A DNA stretch of 40,000 bases from Halobellus salinus (GCF_014646875.1 NZ_BMOC01000001.1:309410-349409), one strand, 5' to 3'. Shown: positions 19,463 through 35,745, counted from the stretch's first letter. The notes: a model not told the origin generated them from the sequence alone. Program-made: numbers and translations.

Positions 19463-19659
19463 CGCCAGCAATCGAGTAACGAAGCACGACCGGTCGCCCG
19501 CGGCTGGGTGAACTGCTTCGGAGTCCCCGAGGCACTCGCCTCGATATTCTGTAGAGGACCGCCACCGCTCCGGTGGCCGTTGGGGGCCTGGGATCGGTCA
19601 CGAGTATCAGCTGACAATCACCCGACAGCACGGCGCCTGACGCGGCGGCGTACGGCGTC

Positions 19660-19669
19660 AAATATATTA
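19660..19669 (+). promoter_or_regulatory. Candidate TATA box for the tubulin-like operon
   Basis: 'aaatatatta' is centred about 37 nt upstream of the ATG at 19702. This fits an archaeal promoter producing a very short leader. Confidence 0.35.
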
Positions 19670-19701
19670 GCCCGGTTCGGAAAGGGTAGAACAGCTATCA
19701 T

Positions 19702-20886
19702 ATGCAATATCTCTTTGTGGGGGCCGGCCAGGCAGGGACGCAGATCGTCGACCAGATCTTCGCACACGACAACATCGACCTTCGGGCGGAGGCGCTGGCG
19801 TTCAACTCCACGATCCAGGACCTCGAACGCCTGGACAACATCCCGCAGGACCGGTGGTATGGGGTTTCCGAGAGCGACGGGCTCGTCAGCGGGACCGTCC
19901 GCGGGTTCGAAGAACGGGTCACGGGTGGCTTCGGCCAGACCCCGACGAAAGCCGACCGGGTAATGCGCCGGAACGAGGGAGAAGTCCACCGCGTGCTCGA
20001 TGAGGTGTACGAGGGGTTGGAAGCGGATCCCTCGACGCTGCAATACGCGTTCGTCTTCCTCGGGTTCGGCGGCGGCACGGGATGCGGGATCGCGCCGCAC
20101 CTCGCCCGGGAGATCCGGTCGTACGCCAGTTCGGAGATGGACATCGTCTCAGTTGGCGTGCTCCCCAATACCAAGCTGGTGAACCAAGGCGCCCAGATGG
20201 ACAACGACGAGGACAACCCGGTGGAAAAGCAGATCCAGCAGTGTGAGAACACGGTGTTCGGGCTGGACAACTTGGAACAGGAAGTCGAGAGCATCATGCT
20301 CGTCGACAACCAGCGGCTCGCGTTGGACGTCGCGGAGAGCAACGAGTACAGCGACTACAACCGGTACGTCGCCGACGCGTTCTTGGATATCGTCTTGGGG
20401 GCCGAGCGCGAGCGCACGGACGACGCGCTCGACGTCCAGATGATGGACGTCGACCTCCAAGACCTTATCCGGTACATCGACGGCGACGGGTTCCGCGCGG
20501 GGTACGCTACGCTCGGCCGCGGTGTCCGGCAGACGGAGTCGCTTCTCGGCTACCTCCTCCCCGGACCGTTCGGCCGTCAGCCGATCCAAGAGACCGGGTT
20601 GATCGCCGACTCCATCGACAAGCAGACAATCGACGAGTTCTCCCCGAGCGACGCCACGAGCGCGGTCGCCGTCGCACAGGCACCGGGGTGGTGCTGGGAC
20701 GACAAGGAGGTCTCGGTCGGGTCGGTCGAGAGCGAACTCGGCTACTACTGCAAGAACGTGAACGCCGGGTGGGCCGTCACCAAACGGAACCTCGCGTCGG
20801 TCACGACCGCGTTCGGGTTTGACCGCGAGGACATCGACCGGATCGCCCAGATCGAACGGATCGCCGAGCGGGAGGGGACAGCGTGA
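19702..20886 (+). CDS. Divergent CetZ-like tubulin/FtsZ-superfamily GTPase (paralog 1, 394 aa)
   Basis: G1 box 'LFVGAGQAGTQIVDQIF' (aa 4-20). T3-like 'TGGFGQT'. Tubulin signature 'LGFGGGTGCGIAPHLAREI' (aa 120-138, signature at nt 20062-20088). 'MLVDNQRLALD' resembles tubulin/CetZ 'DNxA'. T7-like 'MMDVDLQDLIRYIDGDGFRAGYATLG'. Confidence 0.85.
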   Translation: MQYLFVGAGQAGTQIVDQIFAHDNIDLRAEALAFNSTIQDLERLDNIPQDRWYGVSESDGLVSGTVRGFEERVTGGFGQTPTKADRVMRRNEGEVHRVLDEVYEGLEADPSTLQYAFVFLGFGGGTGCGIAPHLAREIRSYASSEMDIVSVGVLPNTKLVNQGAQMDNDEDNPVEKQIQQCENTVFGLDNLEQEVESIMLVDNQRLALDVAESNEYSDYNRYVADAFLDIVLGAERERTDDALDVQMMDVDLQDLIRYIDGDGFRAGYATLGRGVRQTESLLGYLLPGPFGRQPIQETGLIADSIDKQTIDEFSPSDATSAVAVAQAPGWCWDDKEVSVGSVESELGYYCKNVNAGWAVTKRNLASVTTAFGFDREDIDRIAQIERIAEREGTA

Positions 20887-21140
20887 GGAAGCCTCTCCTC
20901 GCCGCCATCGCCGTCGGCGCGGCGCTCGCGGCCGTCGGAAGCGTGGGCGCACAGGGTGACGCCGCATCCCTCGCAGCGCTCGTCGACGGGACGCAACGCG
21001 GACTGGGCCGGCTGGCCGCGGTACAGGTCGCCGCCGGGGACTCGAATCTGAACGTCGTCCGGGGCGTGGGCGGCCTCGCCGGGGTCGGACTCGGGATCGC
21101 GGTCGGTTCGGTCGCGACGTACGTCCGGTGGAGGCGGTAG
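20883..21140 (+). CDS. Small bitopic membrane protein (85 aa; signal/anchor plus C-terminal TM)
   Basis: GTGA overlap with the upstream stop. The N-terminal 'MRKPLLAAIAVGAALAAVGSVGAQG' is followed by the C-terminal 'GLAGVGLGIAVGSVATYVRWRR'. Confidence 0.6.
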   Translation: MRKPLLAAIAVGAALAAVGSVGAQGDAASLAALVDGTQRGLGRLAAVQVAAGDSNLNVVRGVGGLAGVGLGIAVGSVATYVRWRR

Positions 21141-21141: not shown

Positions 21142-22224
21142 ATGCGGGGACCCCACCTCGGCGCCGGGATCGTCGTGGCGTCGGTGCTCCTCGCGGTCGT
21201 TGCAGCGGGACCGGCGGCCGCACAGACGGTCGACCCGGCCGACGAGGCCGAGATCTGTCCCGGAACGTCGGGAGACAGCCTTGTCGTGGTGCTCCCCGGC
21301 GACACCTACGTGCGTCCGGGTGGCGACGCGACGCTGCTGCCCGGGACCGAGGCCGAGATCGCGCTCTGTTCCGATGGCGGGGTGGTCAGCACCACCGCGT
21401 GGCCGGTCGACGGCGGTATCAACGGGGTCACTGTGGGCGAGTCCGAGCGGTTCAGCTACCCCGTCACGGTCGAGGCCGTCGAGGGACCGACCCCTGTCGA
21501 GTTCGCGCCGGCGATCGGCCAGCGGGGCGACGTGGCCACCCCGACTGTGACCGCCGCACCGGGGAACGTGACAACGATCGGCGTCGGCGGTAGCACGTAC
21601 CGTGTCGCCGTCGCAGCCGACAACCGCGACCGACTCCGACGGGCGAACAACTCCTACACCGAGACGCGCAACGGGATGCGCACGGCAGCCGCGGATCTCG
21701 CTGAGAACGCTGGGCGGCTCGACCCCGCCCCCGACATACCGGACGACCGGCGGCTGCCACAGATCAACCGGACACGAGCCGTGACAACCAACTACTCCAC
21801 CATCCAGTCGCGACTGTTCAATGCCGCCGCAAACGGAGACACCGGGGCCGTCGCCGCGCTCGACGCGTACGAACGGCAGCACAACGATGCGCTCGGCGAA
21901 ACTCGCGACAGCCTCGAGACCGCGAACCGGGCGATCGAACGGCAGGCCAGATCCACTGCGCTCGGCGTGCTCGGGGACCTCCTCGGGGTTGCGCTCGCCG
22001 GTGCGGTCGTCGGCGGAATCGGCGGCCGCGTGCTCACGGATCGGATCCTCTCGCAGGTGGAAATCGACCGCCGGCGGAGTTCTGCGGTCGACTTCCGGCC
22101 CAAACACCTCGCGGTCCAACTCGGGGTCGCGGTCGTGTTGGTGGCCGGGGCCGTCGCGCTCGTGGTGACGCAGGGACTGCTCGACCCGCTTGTCGCGGTC
22201 ATCCGGGCGGTGATCGGCGTATGA
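21142..22224 (+). CDS. Secreted/membrane-anchored hypothetical protein (360 aa)
   Basis: Starts 1 nt after the upstream stop. Signal peptide 'GAGIVVASVLLAVVAAGPAAAQ', a beta-rich then helical ectodomain, and two C-terminal TM helices ('ALGVLGDLLGVALAGAVVGGIGG', 'LAVQLGVAVVLVAGAVALVV'). Confidence 0.7.
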   Translation: MRGPHLGAGIVVASVLLAVVAAGPAAAQTVDPADEAEICPGTSGDSLVVVLPGDTYVRPGGDATLLPGTEAEIALCSDGGVVSTTAWPVDGGINGVTVGESERFSYPVTVEAVEGPTPVEFAPAIGQRGDVATPTVTAAPGNVTTIGVGGSTYRVAVAADNRDRLRRANNSYTETRNGMRTAAADLAENAGRLDPAPDIPDDRRLPQINRTRAVTTNYSTIQSRLFNAAANGDTGAVAALDAYERQHNDALGETRDSLETANRAIERQARSTALGVLGDLLGVALAGAVVGGIGGRVLTDRILSQVEIDRRRSSAVDFRPKHLAVQLGVAVVLVAGAVALVVTQGLLDPLVAVIRAVIGV

Positions 22225-24284
22225 ACTCGACACGACGCGATGCCCTCACCGCCGGTGGGGTCGTCACCGCGCTTGCGGCCGCCGGCGTCGCCGTGTTCCT
22301 GTTTTCGGGGTCGAGTGACGCGGTCCTGTTTTTCATCGCCGGGGTGCCGGTGGTGTTGATCCTCGGCGGGGTCGCGTGGCACCGCCGGGAGACGCGTTCG
22401 TCGGGGACCACGTCGCCGCGGATCGAATCGATGACCGACGACCTCGCTGACGACGTCGAGGAACTGTTCGTGACCTACCGGCGGCTTGAGACCGAAACCC
22501 CCTGGGATCCGTCCGCGCACGCGGACTCGGTCCAGGGGATCAAACGGGACCTCGAAAACCGCGGGTTCGAGATCACCACCGGGGGCGACACCGTCGACGT
22601 GACCGTGACCGACTACCCGATGGGGATGGGCGCGCTCTCACAACATCGGACAGCCGTCCGGGACGCGCGCGACGCCCTCGAGTCGGAATACCGGGCGGAC
22701 ATCGACGCCCAGATCGAAGCGATGAGCGATCAGATCGATCGGCTGATCGACGGGAACCTGCTCGATCCGTCGGCCGCCGGTGCGGTCGCGGACGCGCCCG
22801 CTGTTGGGGCCGACCCCGGACGCCTGGCCGGTGTGCTTGGAGACCGCCGGAAGACGTTTCAGGACCTTCTCGACGACGCCGAGAGCAAGGTTCACAGCGT
22901 GACCGGCGAACGGGTCGTCGAGTGGTCGGCGGTCGAAGGGCGGATCGCCGCCGGGCAGTACGAGGCGGCCGCCGAACACGTGTTGGACCCGGACGGTGCG
23001 ACACCCCCAGATCCCGGGCCGAAGAAGGCGGAACTGCTCGAGCTCATCGACACTGTCGAGTCGTCGGTCGCGGCGCAGTACGCCGACCCCGCGCGGTTCG
23101 AGACGCTCGGGGAGGTGCGGGGGGAGATCGAAGCGATCGACTCGGCGTATGAGGTGGACGAACTCGACGAGCGGCTGCGACCGCGTGCGCTCCGGGCGTC
23201 CGCGGAGGTCCTGACCGATATGCGCGAGGAGCTGACCGGGTATATCGAGCAGTTCAGCCGGTCGAACGTCCCGGATGGCTTCTTCGAGCGGCCGGGGGTG
23301 CTCGATCGCTCGCTCGAATCGGAACTCCGCGGCGCGTCAGATCTGGATGCGTTCCGGACGCTGTGGACCGGAATGGCCGACGACCTCGCGGCGGCCCTGG
23401 ACACGGCCGGCGAGCGCGATGGCGCCCTCCGGGCGTACGACGACGTGGTCAACATCGTCGAGCGGGCCCTCGCAACCGATGGGGAGGTGACGGAATCGGA
23501 CGTGCCGTACGATCCCGCAGAGCCGATCATGCGGCTGTACGCCCACCGGAACCCCGAGGTCGGGTTCATGCCGGGGCGTCCCGCCCTCACACAGGACACC
23601 GAGGTGATCGGCCAGCAGTTCGGCCTCGCAGTCGACGTACAGCTCGACCCCCCAGAGACCCGCGACGTCACGGTTGCGGTGACGATCAGAGACGAGACCC
23701 ACCGCCGGACGCGGACGCTCGAAGGGTCGGGCCGAATCGGGTTCGACGGCATCCTGGGCGGTCAGGCGACGGTGGCCGCCAGCGCCGACGACGACCGGTT
23801 CGGAAGCCGTGAGACCGAACTGACGCTCGACCGCGACCGAACGGTCAACCTCCAACTGTCGGAGGAGACCGCGATCGAACGGCTGTGTGCAGGCGTCGAG
23901 ACCAACGCCGAACTCCTCCTCACGGAGGTCGAAGACGACATAACCGCACGCTACGAGTCCGAACAGTATCTCACCGACGGCATGGACCTCGGTGTCCAAG
24001 ACGAGTACACACAGTGCGTGCTCGCGCTGTGGGCCGACAACGCCGGGCTGTCCGTTCAGGTGGAAACCGATTCAGTACTAGTGTACGACAGACAGCGCAT
24101 GCAGAACCAGTTGGTAGATCTGACAGAACAGCGCGTGGGCGACGCCGGCGAGCTCGCCTACGAGACGATGCGCGAGCGGTTCCTGAAACCGCCGGCGAGC
24201 GACGCACTGATACGCGACATCCTCGCGCAGGCGGAGTTGAGTATCGACGTGGAACTCACTGACGACAAGGTGGTGAGTGCGTGA
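22221..24284 (+). CDS. Membrane-anchored hypothetical protein with large acidic soluble domain (687 aa)
   Basis: ATGA overlap with the upstream gene. The N-terminal 'STRRDALTAGGVVTALAAAGVAVFLF' is Tat-like or TM1. It is followed by 'AVLFFIAGVPVVLILGGVAW' (TM2) and then about 620 aa of acidic, partly helical sequence. No family motif recognised. Confidence 0.75.
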   Translation: MNSTRRDALTAGGVVTALAAAGVAVFLFSGSSDAVLFFIAGVPVVLILGGVAWHRRETRSSGTTSPRIESMTDDLADDVEELFVTYRRLETETPWDPSAHADSVQGIKRDLENRGFEITTGGDTVDVTVTDYPMGMGALSQHRTAVRDARDALESEYRADIDAQIEAMSDQIDRLIDGNLLDPSAAGAVADAPAVGADPGRLAGVLGDRRKTFQDLLDDAESKVHSVTGERVVEWSAVEGRIAAGQYEAAAEHVLDPDGATPPDPGPKKAELLELIDTVESSVAAQYADPARFETLGEVRGEIEAIDSAYEVDELDERLRPRALRASAEVLTDMREELTGYIEQFSRSNVPDGFFERPGVLDRSLESELRGASDLDAFRTLWTGMADDLAAALDTAGERDGALRAYDDVVNIVERALATDGEVTESDVPYDPAEPIMRLYAHRNPEVGFMPGRPALTQDTEVIGQQFGLAVDVQLDPPETRDVTVAVTIRDETHRRTRTLEGSGRIGFDGILGGQATVAASADDDRFGSRETELTLDRDRTVNLQLSEETAIERLCAGVETNAELLLTEVEDDITARYESEQYLTDGMDLGVQDEYTQCVLALWADNAGLSVQVETDSVLVYDRQRMQNQLVDLTEQRVGDAGELAYETMRERFLKPPASDALIRDILAQAELSIDVELTDDKVVSA

Positions 24285-25552
24285 TGGCGGCCGGACCGGG
24301 GGCGGACCGCGACGCCACACGGTGGGGTATCATCGCGTCTGGCCAGGGCGGCTGCCGGATCGCGTCGCAGCTTTTCACCCGGACGGACAATCCCGGGGTC
24401 GACGACCGGATCGTCCTCATCAACACCAACGACACGGACATCAAAGAGAGCCTTGATCGGGTGGACGCGCAGTTGACGATGGATCGGGAGATGATCTCCC
24501 GGGAGCACGTCGCGCTCTTCGGGCCTGCCGACGGCACCGGAAACGACTTCTTCGATGGGGAGCGGTTCGCGGAGGAGGGGTTCGACGAGATCTACCAGCC
24601 GATCAACAACACCGCCCGGTCCGACGCCCTCATGTACACGGTTGCGCTCGGTGGGGGGACCGGAAACGGGTCGACACCCTACATCATCGACCAGTTCAGA
24701 CAGGCGCCGGAGGGGGGCGCGGTTGCGGGGTCAAGCAGCGAAGCGACGTGGCTCAACGACATCCCGCAGTTCGTGCTCGCGGCGTGGCCGTTCAGGGGCG
24801 AACTGGACCAGCGGTATTTCAACGCCGTGTGTGGCCTCTCGCGGCTTCTGATGCGGGAGGAAGGGTCTCCCAACGCCGACATAACGCTCCTCGCGTCGAA
24901 CGCGCGGCTGAAGCAACTCCCGGAGGAAAACAACGACACCGAGGCGGTGGCCGGCGCGGAAGCCGTCAGGGAGGAAGACCTCGTGAACCGGCGGATCATC
25001 TCCGCGCTCGATCTGTTCATCAGCGCCGGGCGAACCGCCAGCGATACGATCGACGTGAGAGACTACGCCCGCCAGCCGCAGAGCCGCGGGGCGTACCACG
25101 GCACGTTCGGCACCGCGCTCGAGAAGCCGCTCGGGTTGGGGCTGGAGGTGGCGATCGAAAAGGCCGTCGGGAACACGTTCGTTCCCTTGGACCCGTCGAC
25201 CGCGGAGGCGGCGTACGTGGTCGTGCGCGCGCCACAGCGGAAGGTCAACGCCGGAAAGATCACCGGAGGGGATGTCCGGGGCGCCTTCGCCGACTGGCGG
25301 GAGAAACAGGACCTCAGTGGCGTGGTGGGAATGCATACGCTCTCGAAACAGCCCGGCGGCGGCAACACGTTCGACGTGCTCGTGTTCCTCGCCGGGTTCG
25401 ACCTCACGCCGCTTTTGGAGGAGTCGCGCTCGTGGGAGCGCTACGAGAGCGAGCGGGATCGCCGCGAACAGAACAGTACCGGCGATCGGGGGAAGCGAAT
25501 CCGTCAGTTGGAAGAGAACCTACGGCAGTACCGGAATAACCTGGAGGGGTGA
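24284..25552 (+). CDS. Highly divergent tubulin/CetZ-like GTPase (paralog 2, about 422 aa) with charged helical C-terminal tail
   Basis: The ATG overlaps the upstream stop (TGATG), and an in-frame GTG lies at 24281. G1 box 'WGIIASGQGGCRIASQLF'. T3-like 'PADGTGNDF'. Signature 'VALGGGTGNGSTPYIIDQF' (from nt 24647). T7-like 'TIDVRDYARQ'. Tail 'ERYESERDRREQNSTGDRGKRIRQLEENLRQYRNNLEG'. Confidence 0.8.
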   Translation: MAAGPGADRDATRWGIIASGQGGCRIASQLFTRTDNPGVDDRIVLINTNDTDIKESLDRVDAQLTMDREMISREHVALFGPADGTGNDFFDGERFAEEGFDEIYQPINNTARSDALMYTVALGGGTGNGSTPYIIDQFRQAPEGGAVAGSSSEATWLNDIPQFVLAAWPFRGELDQRYFNAVCGLSRLLMREEGSPNADITLLASNARLKQLPEENNDTEAVAGAEAVREEDLVNRRIISALDLFISAGRTASDTIDVRDYARQPQSRGAYHGTFGTALEKPLGLGLEVAIEKAVGNTFVPLDPSTAEAAYVVVRAPQRKVNAGKITGGDVRGAFADWREKQDLSGVVGMHTLSKQPGGGNTFDVLVFLAGFDLTPLLEESRSWERYESERDRREQNSTGDRGKRIRQLEENLRQYRNNLEG

Positions 25553-28500
25553 CTGTGGGACAGGATACCCCCGGACGCGGCACCGCGACGATTGCCGTTC
25601 TGGCGTGTCTAGTCGTTGTTGTTTCGGGGCTCGCGGTCGCGCCGGGAGCGGTCGGCGCGCAGCAACAGCAACCCGACGGCGACGTCGCGTTCGACGGGGA
25701 CAACGGCGAACTGACAGTCGCAGTGGACCGACGGAACGCGGCCAACGGGAGCTTCACCGGCAGCCCGGAGGACGTGACGATCGATATCGGGGGTGCGACG
25801 GTGCAGAAGCGCACCGATCCCGGGAACGCCTCGACGTACAACTACATGGTCGGGCCGGACGAGTTGGCCGGTCTCGACAGCCTCGACGGGCAGGACGGCG
25901 CGGGAACGACCGTCACAGTCACCCACAGCGAGGCGGGGAGCTTCAACGAGACCGTCGACATCCAGCACGTCGTGCTCGGCGGCGACGGGACGTTCACCGG
26001 CGACGGGGCGTTTCGGTTTGGCATCGTACAGAGCTTCGGCATCGCGACCGACGGATCGGTGGCAGTTCGGGTCGAGGTCGGAAGCGAGGAGCAGGACGTC
26101 TCTGCCGCGTATCGACAGGACGGAGCGACCAACGAGTCGTATCTGGTGGTGGATCGTGCCACCCTGAGTGACCTCGGGGTGCTCGAACGGCCGCAGGAGG
26201 TCACGATCTTCGGACAGGAACAGTTCGTCGGTGGGTCCGTATCGGTCGATGTCGCCAGCAAGGGCGCGGCACTGACGACCGGCGAGCGCCTGTCCGACGA
26301 CACCGTCCGGTTCGAGAGCCCGCTGTTCGAGGCCGGCGGGACGTACGAGATCGACGTCGCCACGGGTGGAGCCCAGTACCTGCAGACGATCGAGGCCGGC
26401 GACCGCGCGGTCGAAGTCGACAGTGCGGCGGTGGCCGCGGAGTCGAGCGTGAGCCTCACCGTCGAGCGGAACGAGAACACGATTCTCAACGGACAGACGG
26501 TCGAATTCGAGACCCGGACGGTGAACGGGACCGTCGACGGCGCGACGATCACGTTCGACAGCCTGCCCGGAGGAATCAGCGGAGCCGACGGGAGCGGGGC
26601 CAACGTGAGCGCGGTGTGGGTCGAAACCCAAGGCGGCGTTGAGCGGTACGAGGCCGGGCTGAACGCCACCACGGGGACGCTGACACTGTCGAACGCGGAA
26701 TCGCTGCCGCGGGCGGACACGAACGAGGCCGACATCCTCGTGCAGTTCGAGGGCGCGACGCCGCTGCACGCCACCGTGTCGCTGCAGTCCGACAGCGATG
26801 GAGCGGCCGCCGAACAGCCCAGCAACGGGGACGAAACCGGGCTCGCGATCGACTTCACGACGATCCTGTTCGCCGTGGCTGTGGTGCTGCTGTTCGTTGT
26901 CGGTGTTGTCGTGGTCTTCTTACTCCTCGATCGGTTCGGGTCCGGCACCACGAACCTCAGCATCCCGTTCGGTTCCTCGAAGTCGACACCGGTCGGGGAG
27001 TCACCCGGGAGCGAGACCGCCGAGGTGTCCGTGGAGGTGGTCGACGAGACCATCGGCACGACCTACCCCCACGCGAACGAGGTGGTCGTGCGCCCGGAGA
27101 ACCGCAGCGGCTCGGCGCAAGCGGCCGGAGCGGTGGGCAGTAGCGGACGCTCCGGGCCGACTGGACACCCCGGATCTGCCGGCCGGACTGCAGCCGCCGG
27201 GCTCGACGGGGTCAACACCACCCGGGCCGACTCAATCGATCTGACGGCCGGCGAGGGCGAGATCGAACTCGAGTACGGGACCTGGATTTTCGAGATCAAA
27301 CGGCGGGGAGAGACCATCGGACAACGGAAACACGAAGTCGGGTACGGCTTCGAGAGCGATCACATCGGACTCTCAGTCGACCCACACGCCGTGGAAGCGG
27401 TGGTGACCGGCGGCCCCGACCGGGAGCCGTTGTCGGGGACGGTCGTTGAGGCGACAGCGGACGCCGGGAGGTGGACGCAACAGAAGCCCACCGATCCGGA
27501 GGGCAGAGTCCGGTTCGAGGTGCCGCGGTCGGCGTCGACCGTCTCGTTCACCGCCACACACGAACCCCTCCCGCCGGCGGAGTCGGAACGCCGGGTCGAG
27601 AAGGCGGCCGAGCAGGGCGTGAGCCTGCGGATCGCCGACGGGAGCGGGTCGATGCGGGTTGAGACGACGGTCGGCGACCGGGCGTGGCCCAACGTCGAAG
27701 TCGGGATCACGCCGATCAGCGCGGACGCCAAGGCGTACACCGAGGAGGGGACGGTCACAACGACGTCGAACGGGCACCAGACGATCGAGGGACTCCCAAC
27801 CGGGGAGTACGAAGTGACCGCCCACCCGCAGGTCGAGTCGGTCGAGACCACCGCAGCGGTCGAGCGCGTCACAGTCGAGGACGGCGGGACCGTCGGCGTA
27901 GAGCTTCCGGTTGGCATCTCGTATACGATGTCGACCGCACAGCGCGACAGGGTCGGAGAGCTGGAAGACCGGATCGAGGGGTTGGCGGCGGCGTCGAACC
28001 GCGACGTGGCGATCCCGCGGTACTACGGGACAGTGCTCACCTCGGTGCTCGAACTCGCAGCGGGCGTGGAGTCGGCACCGGAACGCGCCGTCGAGACGGG
28101 GATCTCTCCCGATGCGACGGTGGATGCGCTGCTCGATGCGACCGAAGCCGGAATCAGAGCGGTCGACGGGGCGATGTCGGAACGCCGGAACGTGAAGCTG
28201 TTCGACGCGTGTGAGGCGCTGCCCGCCGCGACGGTCGAGTGGACCGGGACAGCGACCTTGGAGGAGTTCCTCGGCGGGGTGGCCGACGGCGGAGATCACG
28301 AGCGGCGCGCGCTCCGCGACCGGCTCAGGGCGGTCGACGAGACCCTGGACGGGAAATGGGGCGAGGTCAACGAGATCGCTCCGGCCCGAAAACTCCACGA
28401 CCGGGTGGGAGACCTGGCGCGGGAGACCCGCGATATCGACGACGAACTCACACTTGTCGCACGGACGTACGTCGGAGTCTGTCTGTTGGACGCGGTCGAG

Positions 28501-28554
28501 GGGGTCTTCGACCACGACAGTCTGGTGGATCGGCTCAACAGCGGGAGCTACTGA
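25549..28554 (+). CDS. Large bitopic membrane protein (1001 aa): signal peptide, about 400-aa ectodomain, central TM, about 530-aa second domain
   Basis: GTGA overlap with paralog 2. Signal 'IAVLACLVVVVSGLAVAPGAVGAQ'. The ectodomain carries many N-x-S/T sequons. The TM is 'ILFAVAVVLLFVVGVVVVFLLL' (about aa 437-460). Downstream are three beta-sandwich-like units resembling carboxypeptidase-regulatory-like domains ('TDPEGRVRFEVP', 'GLPTGEYEVTAHP'), then a helical region. Confidence 0.8.
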   Translation: MTVGQDTPGRGTATIAVLACLVVVVSGLAVAPGAVGAQQQQPDGDVAFDGDNGELTVAVDRRNAANGSFTGSPEDVTIDIGGATVQKRTDPGNASTYNYMVGPDELAGLDSLDGQDGAGTTVTVTHSEAGSFNETVDIQHVVLGGDGTFTGDGAFRFGIVQSFGIATDGSVAVRVEVGSEEQDVSAAYRQDGATNESYLVVDRATLSDLGVLERPQEVTIFGQEQFVGGSVSVDVASKGAALTTGERLSDDTVRFESPLFEAGGTYEIDVATGGAQYLQTIEAGDRAVEVDSAAVAAESSVSLTVERNENTILNGQTVEFETRTVNGTVDGATITFDSLPGGISGADGSGANVSAVWVETQGGVERYEAGLNATTGTLTLSNAESLPRADTNEADILVQFEGATPLHATVSLQSDSDGAAAEQPSNGDETGLAIDFTTILFAVAVVLLFVVGVVVVFLLLDRFGSGTTNLSIPFGSSKSTPVGESPGSETAEVSVEVVDETIGTTYPHANEVVVRPENRSGSAQAAGAVGSSGRSGPTGHPGSAGRTAAAGLDGVNTTRADSIDLTAGEGEIELEYGTWIFEIKRRGETIGQRKHEVGYGFESDHIGLSVDPHAVEAVVTGGPDREPLSGTVVEATADAGRWTQQKPTDPEGRVRFEVPRSASTVSFTATHEPLPPAESERRVEKAAEQGVSLRIADGSGSMRVETTVGDRAWPNVEVGITPISADAKAYTEEGTVTTTSNGHQTIEGLPTGEYEVTAHPQVESVETTAAVERVTVEDGGTVGVELPVGISYTMSTAQRDRVGELEDRIEGLAAASNRDVAIPRYYGTVLTSVLELAAGVESAPERAVETGISPDATVDALLDATEAGIRAVDGAMSERRNVKLFDACEALPAATVEWTGTATLEEFLGGVADGGDHERRALRDRLRAVDETLDGKWGEVNEIAPARKLHDRVGDLARETRDIDDELTLVARTYVGVCLLDAVEGVFDHDSLVDRLNSGSY

Positions 28555-28560: not shown

Positions 28561-29655
28561 ATGAAGGGGACACTACTCAGGATGGTCGTCGTCGTCTGCG
28601 TGGTGACGTCCACCGCGGGCGTCGCGGCGGCGACGAGCGGGGCACAGGGGAGCACAGCGGACGCGCCCGACGGGACGCCACCGGCGGACCTCGATGCGGC
28701 GTCGGCGCACGCAGACGTCGATATCGACGTCGAGGAGCCACAGACCGGCGACGATTTCCTCGCGGCGTTCCGGCGGCTATCGGGACAGGAGTCGCTGTCG
28801 GCGTACAGCGAGTTGGAGGTGATCCGGACCCAGGCGGTCGTCGCGGTCCAGTCGGGGTCGTTCGATGACGCCGACCGCGAGCGGATGCGCGGAGTGTTGC
28901 GCACGCTGGTTCGGTTCGACGCGGCGTACGCCGCCGCACAGAACGACAGCCTGACGACGAGTTTCGAGTCGGCGACAGCGACCCGAGAAGCGGTCTCGGG
29001 GCTCGATTCGTCCGGGAGCACCGTCTACAGTTCGCTCGCGAGCGTCGCCTTGGATCGGTTCTTCCGGTCGCTGGGCGAGCGCTTCGAGCAGCGCTCCCGG
29101 GCGGACGGAATCAGCACGCCCGAGCAGATCGACGCGCTCCAGCGGGCCGGGGAGGCGTACCGCCTCGGCGGGTCCAGCGAGCGGTTCGCTGAAGTGTCGG
29201 TCGAGGCCGAACAGCTCGAGAGCGCGTGGGCGCGCGACAGCCAGGAGATCAACGAGTCGATGGCGGCCACACAGTCGTTCCTCGACCGGTGTGGGGCCAC
29301 CTGCGGGAGCCCGGTGAACGCGGTGTCGACCCACACGCTCGGCGTGTTCGGGCTGTACACCGACGCCCGGGCGGCGAGTTCAGCGAGCAGCGACGCGGTC
29401 CGGATCGCAGAGGCGAACAACCTGGGCGACCGCACCACGGAGCTGCAAACAGTCGCCAGCGACGCCTCCGACACGCTGCTGTCGCTGGCGATCGGGTCGG
29501 CGCTGCTTCTGTTCGCGTACGCGTTCGTGCTCGCGATCCCGACGATGATCGTCGCCAGCCGGATGTCGGCGTGGGCGCGCGACAGGCGGGCCGCGTCGGT
29601 GGGGTCAGTCCTCTCGGCGATGCCACGGGAGGTGTACACCGATGGCGGCGAGTGA
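28561..29655 (+). CDS. Secreted helical protein with C-terminal TM anchor (364 aa)
   Basis: Starts 6 nt after the upstream stop. Signal 'MVVVVCVVTSTAGVAAATSGAQG'. The body is helical and acidic. The C-terminal TM is 'LLSLAIGSALLLFAYAFVLAIPTMIVA'. Confidence 0.75.
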   Translation: MKGTLLRMVVVVCVVTSTAGVAAATSGAQGSTADAPDGTPPADLDAASAHADVDIDVEEPQTGDDFLAAFRRLSGQESLSAYSELEVIRTQAVVAVQSGSFDDADRERMRGVLRTLVRFDAAYAAAQNDSLTTSFESATATREAVSGLDSSGSTVYSSLASVALDRFFRSLGERFEQRSRADGISTPEQIDALQRAGEAYRLGGSSERFAEVSVEAEQLESAWARDSQEINESMAATQSFLDRCGATCGSPVNAVSTHTLGVFGLYTDARAASSASSDAVRIAEANNLGDRTTELQTVASDASDTLLSLAIGSALLLFAYAFVLAIPTMIVASRMSAWARDRRAASVGSVLSAMPREVYTDGGE

Positions 29656-32341
29656 GCGTACTGTGAGCCGTGTCGGGGTGGTCATCGTGGCCGCGGTGGT
29701 GGCGCTTTCGGCGTTTGCGGGGCCGGCAGCAGCGGCGACACAGACCGTCGAGCTCGACGAGGCGCTCAACGACCAGCAGCGCGCCACGGAGTTCACGTTC
29801 ACCTTCACCGCGAGCGGCAACGACACCGTGACCGCCGACAGCGGACCGAGCTTCCAGGGCGGCAACGTGAACTTCGAGTTCGAGGGGTGGGACGACCTCG
29901 ACAGCGGCGCGTCGGGGTCGTCACCCAGTTGGGACGTACAGAACGGAAACGAGTACGAAGTCACGTATCAGGCGCAGGTGTCGTCGGGTGCCAACGACGA
30001 GAGCTGGACCGCAACGGTCAGCGGCGGTTCCACAAGCGCCTCGGAGACGCTCAACCTCAACGTTGACTACCTCCAACCCCGGTTCGGCGCCACCGACAGC
30101 CCAACCGAGACGCTGATCTTCACCGATACCAACGACGCGTCTACGGAACTCGACATCGGGTTCGACAACGACGGGCCGGGCGTGATGGTGCTCGATTCGG
30201 TCAACCTCGATAGCACGCCCAGTGGGATCGACGTCTCGGTCGCCTCGCTGTCGAACCAGGTCGACGGCGGGGGGTCGGGGACGGCCGTGCTCGATGTCTC
30301 CGTGGACCCGTCGGTCAGCGCGGGTGACTACACCATCTCGGGGACCATCACCGACAGCCTCGGGAACACCGAGTCGTTCAACGCGGAGATAGAGGTCCGA
30401 AAACCACCCGTCATCTCCGCCGACGACGTCGACGTCGGCGGCGTCCTCATCGGCGAGTCCAACACCGTCGATGTCACGATCGAGGAGGTCGCCGGGTTCT
30501 CCGGCGTCGATGGCGTGAAGGTGAACGTCATCGGGACCAGCGACGATGGCGCCGTCACCGTCGAGGGCGCCGGGTTCGCGAGTACCGGTCCCGGGGGGAG
30601 CGACACGATCGAGGTCCAGGTCTCAGCGGACTCCGACGGGGTGCAGAACGCCGACCTCGACTGGCAGGTCGAGTTGACGCCGCAGGACCAGTACAGCCCG
30701 ACCGAGTCGATCGACGTCACCGGCGAGGTGTTCTACCCGCCGAACCTCGAGTCGCTGTCGGGTGAGGGCGCCGAGAACGTCTTCGACACGCCGCGGTCGC
30801 AGGCCGACACCCAGACCACCGAGACGCGGGTGACCTTCGAGAACACCGGCGACCTCGACATGGACGTAACAGGTGTGTCGGCGAGCGTCGACGACCCCGA
30901 CGTGTCCGCGTCGATCGCGAACGCCGACGCAGCCGTCGGCGGGCAGTCCACCGGAGAGGCGACGGTCGTGCTCGAAGCCGACCCCGAGGCCGCGGAAGGG
31001 AGCTACCCCTTCACCGTCACGGTCGACACCGCGACGGCGGGCACCCAGTCGGTCACGCGCGACCTCACAATCGAGCACATCCCTGAACTCGCCGTGGAGC
31101 GCTCGGAGTTGCCGCTGGGTGACATCACGGTCACCAACCAGCGGACGACGAGCATCGACGTCTCGGAGGTCCTGGAGTACGAGTCGGTCTCCGGTGTCGA
31201 GGTCGTTCGGGTCTCGGGTCCAGACCAGTACCTCGAGGTCGCCGAACGCCCCACCGAGCTCCGGGCTGGCGGGTCCGCGCCGCTGGTGTTCGCAGTCGCG
31301 TTCGACACCTCCGCGGAACTCTACCAGCAGTACCGCTGGGAGTTCGAGGTCCGCGGGGAGGGCGTCGAGACCCAGACCGTGACCGTGACCGCGCAGCCGA
31401 CCCCCTACTCGTTCGATTCGATCTCGAACAACCTCTCGTCGTACGCCGGTGGGTCGGGAGCGCGCGCGGCGACCGCAGCGGGAATGGCGGAGTCGCTTTC
31501 GGCGCTGGAAACCCGGTTGCGGGACGGCGAGGAGGTCCCGGAGGGCGACCTCACCGAGACGATCGCGGCGGGCGAAACCGCGATTCTGCTGCTCGACTCG
31601 CTCGAGGCGGCGGACGAGGCGCGGGGATCCGACGGGCCGGCCGCCGCACAACCGGATGTGCTTCGGGCGCAGGCAACGCTCAACGCGATGTCGGAGTACG
31701 TCACGCGGATCGACGCCTCGCAGGTCGACGCCTCCGCCACGGGGTCGCTCGAGTCCGCCCGAGCCGCGACCGACGAACAGGCCGACGCCCAAGTGGAGTA
31801 TTACGAGTCCCAACTCAACGGCGACATCACCACGTTGCAGCGCGCCAGCGCGAACCGCCAACTCGCGCGGTTGGCCGAGAGCCGCGGCAACGCCGAACGA
31901 GCCAGCCGGCTGAACGAGGAGGCGTCGGGCGCGTTCGACACCTACCTCCAGCAGGTGCAGAACGCCTCCGAGAGCGCGGAGAACGCGCGGGCGACGCGGG
32001 AATCGATCCGTGAAGACGCCACGCTTGTCCTGCTGAACCAGCCGCTGGTGTTGAACCCGGCGCGACTCGACGGTATCTCGGCGGAGATCAGCGCAATCGA
32101 CGCGGCGTACGCCACCGCCGAGGAGACGTACGCCGAGGCGGGCGCGACGGGGCAGGCCGACGCGATCGGCGGGGAACGCGCCACGGTGCAACAGCGCCTC
32201 CAGTTGACACGGTACGGGCTGTGGGGCGCAACCGCGCTGTACGGGCTCGTGGTCCTCGTCGCGCTGCTCAGGACGGGACGGAACCTGTACGCGTACCTCC
32301 AGGACAGACGCACCGTCGAAATGGGTGCGGTCCTGCAGTAG
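29642..32341 (+). CDS. Large surface protein (899 aa): signal peptide, repeated Ig-like beta-sandwich units, helical stalk, C-terminal TM
   Basis: 14-nt overlap with the upstream gene. Signal 'VGVVIVAAVVALSAFAGPAAAA'. It has repeated 'x-V-x-[FV]-x-N-x-G...' strands ('ETRVTFENTGDLDMDVTGV', 'LDIGFDNDGPGVMVLDSV') of the CARDB/Ig-like type. The region from about aa 600-860 is helical. The C-terminal TM is 'LWGATALYGLVVLVALL'. There is no PGF-CTERM motif. Confidence 0.8.
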   Translation: MAASERTVSRVGVVIVAAVVALSAFAGPAAAATQTVELDEALNDQQRATEFTFTFTASGNDTVTADSGPSFQGGNVNFEFEGWDDLDSGASGSSPSWDVQNGNEYEVTYQAQVSSGANDESWTATVSGGSTSASETLNLNVDYLQPRFGATDSPTETLIFTDTNDASTELDIGFDNDGPGVMVLDSVNLDSTPSGIDVSVASLSNQVDGGGSGTAVLDVSVDPSVSAGDYTISGTITDSLGNTESFNAEIEVRKPPVISADDVDVGGVLIGESNTVDVTIEEVAGFSGVDGVKVNVIGTSDDGAVTVEGAGFASTGPGGSDTIEVQVSADSDGVQNADLDWQVELTPQDQYSPTESIDVTGEVFYPPNLESLSGEGAENVFDTPRSQADTQTTETRVTFENTGDLDMDVTGVSASVDDPDVSASIANADAAVGGQSTGEATVVLEADPEAAEGSYPFTVTVDTATAGTQSVTRDLTIEHIPELAVERSELPLGDITVTNQRTTSIDVSEVLEYESVSGVEVVRVSGPDQYLEVAERPTELRAGGSAPLVFAVAFDTSAELYQQYRWEFEVRGEGVETQTVTVTAQPTPYSFDSISNNLSSYAGGSGARAATAAGMAESLSALETRLRDGEEVPEGDLTETIAAGETAILLLDSLEAADEARGSDGPAAAQPDVLRAQATLNAMSEYVTRIDASQVDASATGSLESARAATDEQADAQVEYYESQLNGDITTLQRASANRQLARLAESRGNAERASRLNEEASGAFDTYLQQVQNASESAENARATRESIREDATLVLLNQPLVLNPARLDGISAEISAIDAAYATAEETYAEAGATGQADAIGGERATVQQRLQLTRYGLWGATALYGLVVLVALLRTGRNLYAYLQDRRTVEMGAVLQ

Positions 32342-32370
32342 CAGCGCAGGGTGTGACGGAGCGTTTGATC

Positions 32371-32444
32371 GCGTCGGACACCTACTCGCTCGAACGCACG
32401 TCCAGCCGCGTCGGACACCTACTCGCTCGAACGCACGTCCAGCC
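32371..32444. repeat. Perfect 37-bp tandem duplication at the convergent gene junction
   Basis: 'gcgtcggacacctactcgctcgaacgcacgtccagcc' occurs twice back to back (32371-32407 and 32408-32444). The first 6 nt of a third unit follow. The second copy contains the stop and last 8 codons of the minus-strand 1108-aa gene. Confidence 0.9.
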
Positions 32445-35400
32445 GCGTCGAGAGCGTGTCCGGGAGCGTCGGCGTGTCGGCCTCGTCTTCGGCGTCGACC
32501 CGCCAGCGTTCGGCGTTGTCGGTCCGGTCCCCTGAGACGGTCACCGCCGTCGAGTGAGGGCCGTCGGCGCCGTTGAACGGGGTGACTTCAAGTTCGATCG
32601 GGAGTTCGACGCGGTCGTCGTTGACGGTGCACTCGACCCGGTGGGTCGCGGTCGATCCGGGGTCGAGCGCGTCGATCTCGCCGGGTGCGTAGAGGTACTC
32701 GTCGGGCGCCGTGCCGGTGGCCTCAACGCGGACCGCAACCGGCGCGCCACCCTCGTTTTCCAGCCGAAGCACGACGTTGGTGTCGCGGTCGCCGAGGATG
32801 TCCACCGAGTCGACGGCGACGGAGACGGGCGGGGCGTGTGAGTCGTGGACCGCCGCGAGGGTTTGCAGCGGCCGCTGCCTGTGGTCGATCCGGACGAGCG
32901 TCAGCGCCGGGCGTTCGGTTGGCGCGCCCTGGTAGGTGATCTCCCGGGTTACGTCACCGCCGGGAGCGACGTCGAACCCGTCGAAGCCGACACCTGTGGA
33001 GAACCCCTTCGAGCCGATTTCGAGCACGGAACACGACGTCTCAAGGTTGTTATGAACGTCAAGCCGGACGTCGGTCGTGGTCGACCCCGCCGAGAGCGCG
33101 GGACGAACGACGACCGGTGCGGGTTCGACCGGAACCGACACCCCCGGCACGGTCACCTCGGCGTCGTCCGCGCTGGCGGTGACCGGCGGGACCTCGATCG
33201 AGGAGGTGTCCCACGCGGCGTGATACCGAGTGGCAGTCGCCGTTGTCTCCGGGCTGAGTTCGACCGTGGCTGCGTCACCGTCGGACCGGAGGGTGATCGA
33301 CTTCGGCTCCGGCGAGCGGTTCTCGACCGTGAGCGTCTCTTCGAGGGCGTGACCCTCGTGAGCGGTGTCCGAGTCCAGGCTGCGGTCAAGGCCGAGCGGG
33401 TCGCGGGGTGCCGGGGAGGCGGACTCCTCGGATGCGGCGGAGTCGTCAGGGGCGGCGGGCGAAACGGGCGAGTCGACCGACTCCGGTGACGGTCCGCGCT
33501 CGGGGCCGGGGGTCGCGTCCGGCTGGCCGGCCGACCCGGGGGCCGCCGGTGCGGACGCGTCGCCCGCCTCCGCGGAATCCGGCGGCGTTGTGTCCCGGTC
33601 CGGAGGGGCCGCCGGTGCGGACGCGTCGCCCGGCTCCGCGGAGTCCGGCGGCGTTGTGTCCCGGTCCGGAGGGGTCGCCGGTGCGGATGCGTCGCCCGCC
33701 TCCGCGGAATCCGGCGGCGTTGTGTCCCGGTCCGGAGGGGTCGCCGGTGCGGATGCATCGCCCGCCTCCGCGGAATCCGGCGGCGTTGTGTCCCGGTCCG
33801 GATGGGGGGTCGAGGGCGTGTCGCGGCCGCCGCGTGTCGGCGTGTCCGCGCCCGGGACCCGGTCCTTGCCGTCGTGTGCGTGGTCGTTGCGGCCGTCCTG
33901 TGGGGCGTCCGTCCCGCCGGCCGACGGGAGCGTCGCGCGGTCAAGCGAAACAGCGGCGGTGGCGTCGACCGCCGCGGCGTCGATCCTGACCTCGCCGACA
34001 CCGGCGCGGGCAGACGGAAGCGCAAGTGTGAGTCGACCCCCGGCCGGGAGAGACACCGACCGCTCTACCGGGGTGACCAGCGGGTCGCCGGTCACCCGCA
34101 CGTCGTCGTGGACCGTTATGTCGGTGTCGTTCCGGAGCGTCACGTCGACGAACCCGTCGTCGCGTGCGCTGACGGACGCCGAAAGCGGGGTTGTCGGGGG
34201 TGACACCGCGGCGTCGACCGACTCCCCGTCTCCGGTTGTGGCGGTCACTCGCTCCGTCGTGAGGGGGAGCGAGAGCGTCCGTGACACCGAGGACCGCCCC
34301 GGTTCGGGATCGATGTCGACGCCGCCCGGGGAGAGCGACACCGCCGGGAGATCCGACCCGTCCGGCGTCCGAACGCTCACCTCAACGGTCGCAGTCCCGT
34401 CGTCGACACCGGTGACATCAGCACCGACGACCGGGGTTGGGGTTGCCGGCGGGACCGAAATCGTCGCCCCGACCTCGGTCGGTTCCGAGCCATCGGTGCC
34501 GCCGGGGGTGAACGTCGCACGGGCTGCAAGCCGAGACCCCGCCGCCTCCGCGAGCGTGAACCGCAGTTCGGTGCGTTCGCCGGCGTCAAGCGAGACCCGC
34601 CGGGATTCGGGACGGAACGATCCGTCGTCGGCGGACGCCCGAACCGTCCCGGTGGTCGGCTCACCGATGGTTTCGGCCGTGACAACGAGTTCCGAGCCGA
34701 CCCGGAGCGACGTCGGCGAGAGGTCCAAGTCGACGCCGGAAAGCGACGCCGCAGGCCGAAGCACCCCGGCGGTCCGACCGTCGATCCGGCAGGCCACCTC
34801 CCCGTCGGTTGTGACCGCGACCTGCGTTGCGTCTGGTGTGTCGATCCCGACGTCGGTCACCGCGCCGTCGGCGGAGATCCGGACTACGCCGTGATCGGCG
34901 GCGGCGTAGAGCCCCCCGTCACCCCGCGGTGCGAGCCACTCGACGTCGAGGTGCAGTTCCCACCGGATCGCCCCGTCGTCCGCGTCGACGCCGACGACCC
35001 GATCACCGTGGAGCGACACCACCGCCACGTCTTCGAGCAGTCCGACGCCCGTGATGGTGCCGTCGAGCATCGCCTCTCCCGTCCGATCGCCGTCGGGGCC
35101 GAACCCGGTGAGGTACCACGACTCGCCCGCGAGGAACTCCTCGCCCCGGCCGGCGAGCAGGACGGTCTCGGACACGTCGGCGTGGGTCCGGTCGATCCGT
35201 CCGCGTTCGGTCCCGTCAGCGTCGTCGAGTAGCACGAACTCTCCGGTGTCGGTGGCGGCGACCACCCGCGATTGGTCGGGCACCCAACACAGCGCCGTGG
35301 CGCCGTCAATGGGCGCCTCCCACCGTCGTGCGCCGTCGAACCCGTACCCGAACACGTGGTCGTCGACCGCGACGTACACCAGCGGCCCGACCGCAAGCCC

Positions 35401-35745
35401 GCGCGGCCGTGCTTCGACGCCGAACCGCGCGCCGTCGTCGGACCCGGCCGCGAGCACGGAGACCCCGCCGGAGACCGACGCCAGCGCGATCCGGGAGTCG
35501 CCGGCGGCGATCAGCGCGATCGCCCCGGTGTCGACCGACCTGACCTGCGCGTACTCCCGCGGGAGGTCGCCGCCCGCGACCGCATCGGGCGTGTCATCGG
35601 CGGTGCCCCCCTCCGAGGCACGGCCGGTCACCGGAACTCGCCTCCCGAGTCGCGCGGCGCACACTCCGGTCGTCGTCGGCCGTGTCGCGTGCGTGGCCGA
35701 TCGGATATCATACCCGGACCTGGAATCCGGAGTGACAAAAAACAC
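32419..35745 (-). CDS. Large PQQ-like beta-propeller plus Ig-like repeat protein (about 1108 aa) with internal 22-aa tandem repeats
   Basis: The N-terminal third has repeated 'DG..RWE' blades ('GFDGARRWEAPI', 'DADDGAIRWELHL'). The C-terminal half has CARDB-like strands ('TLTVENRSPEPKSITL', 'VVLRLENEGGAPVAVRVEATG'). The GTG start is uncertain. No obvious signal peptide. Confidence 0.8.
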   Translation of the reverse strand: MFFVTPDSRSGYDIRSATHATRPTTTGVCAARLGRRVPVTGRASEGGTADDTPDAVAGGDLPREYAQVRSVDTGAIALIAAGDSRIALASVSGGVSVLAAGSDDGARFGVEARPRGLAVGPLVYVAVDDHVFGYGFDGARRWEAPIDGATALCWVPDQSRVVAATDTGEFVLLDDADGTERGRIDRTHADVSETVLLAGRGEEFLAGESWYLTGFGPDGDRTGEAMLDGTITGVGLLEDVAVVSLHGDRVVGVDADDGAIRWELHLDVEWLAPRGDGGLYAAADHGVVRISADGAVTDVGIDTPDATQVAVTTDGEVACRIDGRTAGVLRPAASLSGVDLDLSPTSLRVGSELVVTAETIGEPTTGTVRASADDGSFRPESRRVSLDAGERTELRFTLAEAAGSRLAARATFTPGGTDGSEPTEVGATISVPPATPTPVVGADVTGVDDGTATVEVSVRTPDGSDLPAVSLSPGGVDIDPEPGRSSVSRTLSLPLTTERVTATTGDGESVDAAVSPPTTPLSASVSARDDGFVDVTLRNDTDITVHDDVRVTGDPLVTPVERSVSLPAGGRLTLALPSARAGVGEVRIDAAAVDATAAVSLDRATLPSAGGTDAPQDGRNDHAHDGKDRVPGADTPTRGGRDTPSTPHPDRDTTPPDSAEAGDASAPATPPDRDTTPPDSAEAGDASAPATPPDRDTTPPDSAEPGDASAPAAPPDRDTTPPDSAEAGDASAPAAPGSAGQPDATPGPERGPSPESVDSPVSPAAPDDSAASEESASPAPRDPLGLDRSLDSDTAHEGHALEETLTVENRSPEPKSITLRSDGDAATVELSPETTATATRYHAAWDTSSIEVPPVTASADDAEVTVPGVSVPVEPAPVVVRPALSAGSTTTDVRLDVHNNLETSCSVLEIGSKGFSTGVGFDGFDVAPGGDVTREITYQGAPTERPALTLVRIDHRQRPLQTLAAVHDSHAPPVSVAVDSVDILGDRDTNVVLRLENEGGAPVAVRVEATGTAPDEYLYAPGEIDALDPGSTATHRVECTVNDDRVELPIELEVTPFNGADGPHSTAVTVSGDRTDNAERWRVDAEDEADTPTLPDTLSTRLDVRSSE
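33541..33804. repeat. 66-bp tandem repeat x4 inside the 1108-aa gene (encodes PPDRDTTPPDSAEAGDASAPAT x4)
   Basis: Four nearly identical 66-nt units are visible on the plus strand ('ggccgccggtgcggacgcgtcgcccgcctccgcggaatccggcggcgttgtgtcccggtccggagg'), with a few substitutions. Confidence 0.85.

Follow-up and report, generated by a model that had tools for sequence, protein, structure and literature searches.

We identified two tubulin-like genes, T1 and T2, in a 40,000-nucleotide stretch of the Halobellus salinus genome (GCF_014646875.1, NZ_BMOC01000001.1:309410-349409; this entire stretch is referred to as the window, and positions are counted from its first letter). Judging from their sequences, T1 and T2 are a probable non-redundant tubulin pair that belongs to an ancient, envelope-spanning gene system. 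They are separate orthologous families that are inherited together, and the same four families of membrane proteins accompany them in several archaeal phyla. This conserved linkage points to a machine that connects a cytoskeleton to the cell envelope. By analogy with archaeal FtsZ1 and FtsZ2, we suggest that T1 and T2 may cooperate within one complex, as a pair of filaments or tethers (rough probability 0.45), a reading that we rank somewhat ahead of one in which they form an obligate heterodimer or heteropolymer.

Two tubulin-like families

T2 (24284..25552, + strand) is predicted to encode a tubulin/FtsZ-superfamily GTPase of 422 amino acids (aa), based on its open reading frame (ORF), the Pfam domain PF00091, an AlphaFold2 (AF2) model and Foldseek searches. 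The G+C content of the window is ~68% (haloarchaeal DNA), and ORF calling on the + strand returned 24281..25552, which would give a product of 423 aa if the GTG at 24281 were used. The next codon is an ATG (24284) that shares one nucleotide with the TGA of the upstream gene. This ATG is the likelier start because the homologues of T2 begin with MAAG, and the span of 24284-25552 proposed in an initial annotation of the window is accurate for what is a genuine ORF. The TGA of T2 (25550-25552) shares nucleotides with the GTG (25549) from which the following gene, b1001, starts. Residue positions of T2 follow the 423-aa numbering from the GTG.

The initial annotation had called T2 tubulin-like, and profile and structure searches agree. 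Pfam assigns PF00091 to T2 at 34.7 bits (gathering cut-off 33, E 2.8e-8). Searched against the PDB, the T2 family profile finds CetZ1 at E 9e-14 and the T1 family profile finds CetZ as its best match at E 4e-12; the ranking for both profiles is CetZ, then FtsZ, TubZ and RepX, then tubulins. An AF2 model of T2, built from an alignment of 35 homologues, has a mean predicted local distance difference test score (pLDDT) of 88 and a predicted template modeling score (pTM) of 0.90; only residues 1-10 and an acidic insert (218-228) are disordered. Foldseek returned more than 1000 PDB matches to this model at E<=0.001. The best is CetZ2 of Haloferax volcanii (4b45, E 6e-18, target-normalized template modeling score (TMt) 0.81), followed by M. 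jannaschii FtsZ and CetZ1, and then by eukaryotic tubulins, gamma-tubulin, BtubA and Asgard AtubA (query-normalized score (TMq) ~0.70-0.71). E values for CetZ2, FtsZ, tubulins, BtubA and AtubA are about 1e-16 to 1e-18. By the AF2 model, the Foldseek matches and its sequence, T2 is a protein of two domains, with an activation domain at the C-terminus and an acidic T7 loop. A lack of the tubulin/FtsZ fold, which the initial annotation named as grounds for dropping its proposal, does not apply, because AF2, Foldseek and the profiles all give a CetZ/FtsZ/tubulin fold. We conclude from the model and the sequence that T2 is, by all indications, a genuine but very divergent tubulin/FtsZ-fold GTPase.

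The loops expected to bind and hydrolyze nucleotide can be located in T2. We identified the phosphate-binding T1 loop (SGQGGC, aa 20-25; 24338..24355), the T3-like loop (DGTGND, aa 84-89; 24530..24547), the T4 signature (LGGGTGNG, aa 123-130; 24647..24670) and the T7 loop (TIDVRDY, aa 256-262; 25046..25066), all on the + strand, with D258 and D261 as the putative GTPase-activating acidic residues. The strings SGQGGC, DGTGND, LGGGTGNG and IDVRDY quoted in the initial annotation, and MDVDLQD of its paralog 1 (our T1, aa 248-254), were all found in the ORFs. The T1, T3, T4 and T7 motifs are conserved across 83 T2 and 53 T1 sequences. Within the T2 family the T1 loop takes the form (A/S)(S/A)G(E/Q)G(G/A)x in all lineages, GxGN of the T3-like loop is kept in all lineages, the exact string LGGGTGNG occurs in 79 of the 83 members, and the T7 pattern (T/V)ID(V/I)xD(Y/L) is present in each variant listed, again in all lineages; D261 is close to invariant across the 35-homologue alignment. 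With all nucleotide-binding loops and the acidic T7 loop in place, T2 is predicted to be catalytically complete. The T2 family is small (41 representatives at E<=1e-30 among 1.84 billion proteins) and, by its sequences, appears CetZ-like yet distinct.

T1 (19702..20886, + strand), the first gene of the operon, is predicted to encode a 394-aa tubulin/FtsZ-superfamily GTPase, based on PF00091 (49.9 bits, cut-off 33) and the PDB profile match. Its family keeps the motifs GAGQAG, GGFG, GGGTGCG and, in T7, (I/V)D(L/V/I)xD; the acidic T7 residues of T1 are D251 and D254. The initial annotation stated that the two paralogs share little. This holds for pairwise comparison (BLASTP E 0.04, not significant), but hhalign detects homology between the family profiles over 298 columns, at 98% probability (E 2.4e-13) and ~20% identity, and puts their T7 loops in register. 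When all tubulin-like ORFs from 84 sources (83 loci plus the window) were scored with family hidden Markov models (HMMs), each sequence received 300-660 bits from the HMM of its own family and less than 35 bits from that of the other. Because the HMMs separate them cleanly, we consider T1 and T2 to be two old orthologous families rather than recent duplicates. Both acidic T7 residues are kept in essentially all T1 and T2 sequences. Since the loops and T7 are intact, each paralog would be expected to bind GTP and to stimulate hydrolysis in the subunit stacked upon it; since both T7 loops are acidic in both families, an asymmetry of catalysis as in alpha/beta-tubulin is not expected.

The C-terminal tail of T2 (aa 381-423; 25421..25549, + strand), delimited from the AF2 model, its composition and a conserved motif, is predicted to form two helices (381-398 and 402-422; pLDDT of the block 85-94). 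Charged residues make up 21 of its 43 positions (49%), and the C-terminal string reads RIRQLEENLRQYRNNLEG. Hydrophobic residues of the last helix (I407, L410, L414, Y417 and L421) follow a 3-4-3-4 spacing, and the motif (I/L)ExxLxxY is conserved in T2 of every lineage and phylum. The charged, heptad-like tail noted in the initial annotation is thus present, with its charge and hydrophobic stripe; the accompanying statement that paralog 1 lacks such an element does not hold, as T1 ends in a conserved helix of its own (...EDIDRIAQIERIAERE; R380, E385 and A388 conserved). In the model, the tail of T2 looks more like the C-terminal surface helices of tubulin and CetZ than like a floppy docking peptide, although it may still dock onto a partner. 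Hydrothermarchaeota T2 orthologues (loci L064, L066, L067, L072, L077 and L080) carry a conserved terminal EWGF beyond the shared helix. T1 orthologues of Micrarchaeota (L075 and L083) have a C-terminal PEGA beta-sandwich and a Lys-rich tail.

Co-encoding and membrane partners

T1 and T2 lie in one operon of eight genes, in the order T1, s85, m360, c687, T2, b1001, m364 and b899. Each junction overlaps or abuts, which bears out the placement of both paralogs in a single operon by the initial annotation. An identical order of the eight genes occurs in Halobacterium salinarum R1, where the record is that of a 195-kb plasmid (AM774417), in Halobellus sp. Atlit-31R and at ~35 other haloarchaeal loci. 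A putative operon promoter, a TATA-like box read by eye (aaatatatta, 19660..19669, + strand), is located ~33-42 nt upstream of the ATG of T1.

A genome scan with the T2 profile yielded 80 loci, and T1 was found near T2 in 51 of the 60 that were informative. T1 is present in all 34 informative loci of Halobacteria (same strand, 3.0-4.0 kb upstream of T2), in 12/12 loci of Hydrothermarchaeota and related metagenome-assembled genomes (MAGs; ~1.4 kb upstream), in 3/3 loci of Micrarchaeota (opposite strand from T2), and in the single loci of Methanoperedens (1/1) and of a MAG labeled "bacterium" (1/1). For the reciprocal case, metagenomes were scanned with the T1 profile and loci with enough downstream sequence were considered; T2 was identified in 36 of these 37 informative T1 loci. 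The initial annotation would have given up its proposal had the homologues usually been encoded separately; the counts in both directions, across phyla, show them to be co-encoded. A degenerate T1-like ORF (GGITGPG, with no acidic T7) was observed at locus L043, 6.6 kb from the T2-like gene.

The six other genes of the operon all encode membrane proteins, as judged by hydropathy, and none has a significant Pfam, NCBIfam or PADLOC assignment. An N-terminal signal and a C-terminal anchor are present in each of s85, m360, m364 and b899. Families of c687, b1001, m364 and b899 adjoin T1 and T2 outside Halobacteria as well. The iterative HMM searches of a small database that we used for the partners are trusted mainly because the matches are syntenic. 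We also considered a defense system and rejected it, as none of the eight operon proteins has a PADLOC match.

The gene immediately upstream of T2 is c687 (22221..24284, + strand), identical (100%) to GCM10008995_03380 of Halobellus salinus. From hydropathy and an AF2 model (pLDDT 82.6, pTM 0.50), its product is a candidate anchor with two N-terminal transmembrane helices and a cytoplasmic body of ~630 aa; the model runs from the two transmembrane helices through extended helices in the cytoplasm (66-420) and a beta-sandwich (466-548) to an alpha/beta domain at the C-terminus. A fold search against the PDB gave nothing at E<0.001, and just the beta-sandwich resembles a known fold (CarboxypepD/CnaB). 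The homologue search for c687 recovered close relatives only (at least 53% identity), and homology across phyla was established with HMMs on the fetched loci (hhalign 99.95%). In nearly all loci outside the anaerobic methanotrophic archaea (ANME) that have an upstream gene call, a gene of the c687 type directly precedes T2, usually with a gap of -4 to +6 nt. With stop and start codons overlapping or abutting, c687 is predicted to be translationally coupled to T2.

Directly downstream of T2, b1001 (25549..28554, + strand; its GTG overlaps the T2 stop) encodes a bitopic protein of 1001 aa. By hydropathy it comprises a signal/transmembrane segment, an extracellular region of ~400 aa, a transmembrane segment (438-456) and a cytoplasmic region of ~540 aa with beta-sandwiches of the prealbumin/PEGA type (weak CarboxypepD_reg and SpaA matches at aa 725-785). 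The family is also found in non-haloarchaeal loci, and its cytoplasmic region cross-matches the PEGA tail of Micrarchaeota T1. This fusion, a possible Rosetta-stone sign, hints that T1 may work beside the cytoplasmic domain of b1001.

The last two genes of the operon encode surface proteins. An N-terminal signal and a C-terminal transmembrane anchor were recognized from the ORF and hydropathy in m364 (28561..29655, + strand), the family of which is conserved in Methanoperedens, Hydrothermarchaeota and other MAGs. The large b899 (29642..32341, + strand) likewise has a signal and a C-terminal transmembrane anchor (hydropathy, weak domain matches), with Ig-like domains, a helical region and weak Big_13 and choice-of-anchor-D matches; it is conserved across phyla, in all cases adjoining an m364 homologue. 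In iterative searches m364 and b899 cross-match, and have in common a C-terminal module of helices and a transmembrane segment. Outside Halobacteria the pair is divergently transcribed, on the opposite strand (for example at L041, L050 and L064). It is located upstream of T1 in Methanoperedens and in loci of the Hydrothermarchaeota type, and downstream of T2 in the "bacterium" MAG (L050). Hydrothermarchaeota loci also encode neighboring C-terminally anchored proteins with NosD/beta-helix and Ig-like domains, which are typical of cell-surface proteins.

The remaining two partners appear to be specific to Halobacteria. The small membrane protein s85 (20883..21140, + strand; 85 aa) overlaps the stop of T1 and has, by hydropathy, an N-terminal signal/transmembrane segment and a Gly-rich, hydrophobic C-terminal segment; jackhmmer returned 34 haloarchaeal matches and none elsewhere. 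The product of m360 (21142..22224, + strand; 360 aa), also confined to Halobacteria in jackhmmer searches, has an N-terminal signal/transmembrane segment and two C-terminal transmembrane segments (ORF, hydropathy).

Two possible filaments or a possible co-polymer

We predict that T2 would polymerize head-to-tail, in a GTP-dependent manner, at the cytoplasmic face of the membrane, where c687 would tether it, with the helical hairpin at the C-terminus of T2 as the most likely tether or partner surface. T1 may be tethered separately, probably through the region of cytoplasmic beta-sandwiches in b1001. The resulting filaments could position, assemble or move m364, b899 and the outer half of b1001, and in Halobacteria also s85 and m360.

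Several observations weigh against two separate, cooperating filaments. Tethering and polymerization are proposed from the order and translational coupling of the genes and from a single domain fusion. The domain arrangement of c687 is uncertain (pTM 0.50), with no informative structural homologue. The strict co-occurrence of T1 and T2 across phyla is equally compatible with a co-polymer. T1 is lacking from 7 of 8 informative ANME-2 loci, in which T2 adjoins cdhC (acetyl-CoA synthase/carbon monoxide dehydrogenase), and from second copies of T2 located among housekeeping genes in Halobellus ordinarius (L028) and H. marinus (L036). The solo T2-like genes, both those of ANME-2 and Methanogaster (within L042-L065) and the second copies in Halobellus, have neither T1 nor any partner gene nearby. 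Because such solo genes exist, the T2 family is not tied to the machine in every lineage.

The strongest alternative, which we consider possible but rather doubtful, is that T1 and T2 form an obligate heterodimer or an alternating heteropolymer that is the cytoskeletal element of the operon, much as the initial annotation proposed. The near-obligate, reciprocal co-encoding in at least four archaeal lineages is what such an arrangement would produce, and the two families can be aligned over their whole fold, T7 loops included. As both have complete nucleotide pockets and an acidic T7 loop, each could complete the active site of the other, and the T2 model matches BtubA and AtubA as well as eukaryotic tubulins. 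Pairwise distance matrices correlate at r = 0.92-0.94, and a partial r of 0.51 remains between T1 and T2 after controlling for the anchor, which is weak evidence because the data points are non-independent; since all pairs correlate highly, distance correlations cannot separate a co-polymer from co-inheritance. 

The comparison with established heterodimers argues the other way. In beta-tubulin, a Lys replaces the T7 Glu of alpha-tubulin, which makes the intradimer site non-hydrolyzing. T7 is acidic in both of our families, with no such catalytic asymmetry, and the analogy to alpha/beta-tubulin and BtubA/B drawn in the initial annotation is weakened by the retention of both acidic T7 residues in both paralogs. 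Known tubulin heterodimer pairs are also far closer in sequence than the ~20% identity, not significant in BLASTP, of T1 and T2. The two genes are never adjacent in Halobacteria, where three membrane-protein genes (3.0-4.0 kb) lie between them, and in Micrarchaeota they occupy opposite strands. The two proteins also seem to have different membrane partners, judging by gene coupling and the domain fusion, and T2-like genes occur alone.

It seems improbable that T2 is non-filamentous and instead regulates, nucleates or caps the filaments of T1 in the manner of gamma-tubulin, or serves as a GTP switch of the membrane complex. Within the Halobellus clade, T2 has diverged more rapidly than T1 (61% versus 81% identity to Halobellus sp. 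Atlit-31R). T2 also has the additional C-terminal helical hairpin and is tightly coupled to a membrane protein, and both structure and sequence searches match it to gamma-tubulin chains, all of which would fit such a role. However, gamma-tubulin matches T2 no better than other tubulins do, and the acidic T7 residues, which matter only in a head-to-tail contact, are conserved in essentially all T2 sequences. The solo T2-like genes also imply that T2 can act without T1.

Least credible by far is a role in plasmid or provirus DNA segregation, as for TubZ, or the status of a redundant, decaying CetZ duplicate: the operon is on plasmids in Halobacterium salinarum R1 (195 kb) and Natrinema sp. 74 (742 kb) and TubZ and RepX are among the weaker PDB matches, but most loci are chromosomal, on large contigs or in complete chromosomes, each operon neighbor is a membrane or surface protein, a viral or plasmid-partition system was rejected as there are no T2 relatives in IMG/VR and no TubR-like DNA-binding gene or centromere-like repeat nearby, identity to CetZ is only ~20%, and decay is ruled out because both families are strongly conserved with intact motifs.

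Returning to the cooperating filaments, a broader proposal can be made, although we regard it as unlikely in its full form. T1 and T2 may represent the motor or scaffold of an unrecognized "two-tubulin envelope machine", in which GTP-driven, membrane-tethered filaments (possibly a T1/T2 co-polymer) would be mechanically coupled via c687 and b1001 to m364 and b899 and would position, assemble or move these large proteins at the cell surface. The machine would be older than the divergence of Halobacteria, Methanoperedens, Hydrothermarchaeota and Micrarchaeota. If true, this would be a tubulin-based counterpart of the bacterial systems that link the cytoskeleton with machinery of the envelope or surface.

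Flanking genes and known systems

Immediately downstream of the operon, and convergent with it, is a gene for an acidic surface protein of 1108 aa with a PQQ-like beta-propeller (32419..35745, - strand; weak PF13360 match). By tblastn, this gene is directly downstream and convergent in 26 haloarchaeal loci, and thus in most Halobacteria; its product is a possible ninth component. It contains a tandem repeat of 66 bp x 4.1 (33539-33807) that encodes a Pro/Asp/Thr-rich unit of 22 aa. A perfect tandem repeat of 37 bp x 2.2 (32370-32450) bridges the short interval that separates the b899 stop (32341) from the 3' end of the PQQ-like gene (32419), extending ~30 nt into the latter, and could be a bidirectional terminator region. 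Beyond the PQQ-like gene, a membrane protein with the Walker A motif GPKRSGKS (37043-39133, - strand) and its acidic neighbors (35779-37290 and 39149-40000, both - strand) lack a family assignment and look like another uncharacterized gene cluster.

Upstream of T1, the ~1-kb gap (18706-19701) contains a degenerate YdjM fragment (18720-19250, + strand; 22 bits versus a cut-off of 29, covering a third of the model). An intact ydjM of 335 aa is present at the same position in Halobellus sp. Atlit-31R, and the fragment is probably a decayed gene. No Rfam matches were found in the entire window. In most haloarchaeal loci, a third family of tubulin-like proteins, T0 (530-650 aa), is encoded upstream of T1 (for example at 1826-3541 of L023 and 2393-4015 of L001); scoring with the family HMMs did not detect T0 in the window or in the Halobellus clade.

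The closest match of both T1 and T2, in structure and by profile, is CetZ (4b45, 4b46, 3zid). All have an FtsZ-like core with C-terminal helical elements and occur in Halobacteria and other Euryarchaeota, but identity between CetZ and T1/T2 is only ~19-20% and the gene context is not that of CetZ. Published neighborhoods of cetZ1 and cetZ2 contain genes for cofactor or nucleotide biosynthesis or for type IV pili (PMC9856176), in contrast to the membrane and surface proteins of the T1/T2 operon. Haloarchaeal sequences described as "non-canonical TSF" (tubulin superfamily) or "CetZ-like" have been placed outside canonical CetZ (PMC9856176, PMC9871819), and were pooled by Brown & Duggin (2023) as "non-canonical TSF proteins" that are patchy and possibly redundant (PMC9856176). 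Halo.Tub (Santana-Molina et al., 2023, PMC9871819) comes from the same gene neighborhood as T1 and T2. Its C-terminal alignment row for Halopenitus persicus exactly matches the T0 protein of L023 (supplementary alignment of PMC9871819); Halo.Tub is T0, and neither T1 nor T2. For Halo.Tub, that study gives no function, partner analysis or cross-phylum operon. In the literature searched, we found no characterization of T1, T2, their partners or the cross-phylum operon, although the two surveys (PMC9856176 and PMC9871819) mention such proteins in passing.

The archaeal tubulin-superfamily proteins that have been studied are only FtsZ1/2, CetZ and a few tubulin-like proteins. Our analysis would recast two of the "non-canonical" families as a conserved and, by their motifs, catalytically intact pair in a six-family, envelope-spanning gene system of several archaeal phyla. 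This bears on how archaeal tubulin homologues may be tethered, on whether prokaryotic paralogs co-polymerize beyond BtubA/B and the Asgard tubulins, and on whether a tubulin-type cytoskeleton organizes surface proteins. Halobacterium salinarum R1, which is genetically tractable, carries the operon on a plasmid, whereas Haloferax volcanii was absent from the matches.

Makarova & Koonin reportedly described, in 2010, FtsZl-1/Tubulin_2, a divergent relative of FtsZ and tubulin whose gene shares a conserved operon with those of membrane proteins. The concept of a divergent homologue in a membrane-protein operon is similar to that of T1 and T2. Membership of this family (PF13809) was considered and rejected, as T2 has no match and the 15.1 bits of T1 fall short of the gathering cut-off of 27. 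FtsZl-1 has a partner with a vWA domain (PMC5898192), and the Pfam scan detected no vWA-domain partner in our operon.

Alpha/beta-tubulin, BtubA/B and AtubA/B share with T1 and T2 the co-inheritance of two paralogs of the same fold (TMq ~0.70 for T2). Unlike these pairs, T1 and T2 both have an acidic T7, are far more divergent from each other and are encoded by separated genes. The Pfam scan at E<=1 found no Tubulin_C domain (PF03953).

Assignment of T1 and T2 to FtsZ itself was rejected, as TIGR00065, for which the cut-off is 295 bits, scores T2 at 15.1 and T1 at 31.3 bits, and neither has an FtsZ_C domain. The Pfam and PDB fold searches made revealed no relation between c687 and SepF. Unlike FtsZ1 and FtsZ2, T1 and T2 are patchily distributed, and their operon is sometimes on plasmids. 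As an example of two cooperating filaments, however, archaeal FtsZ1/FtsZ2 is the closest working analogy: two non-redundant paralogs of the division ring that act on one membrane-associated structure, with SepF and CdpA as dedicated membrane anchors (10.1101/2020.06.04.133736, PMC8178401, PMC12126565).

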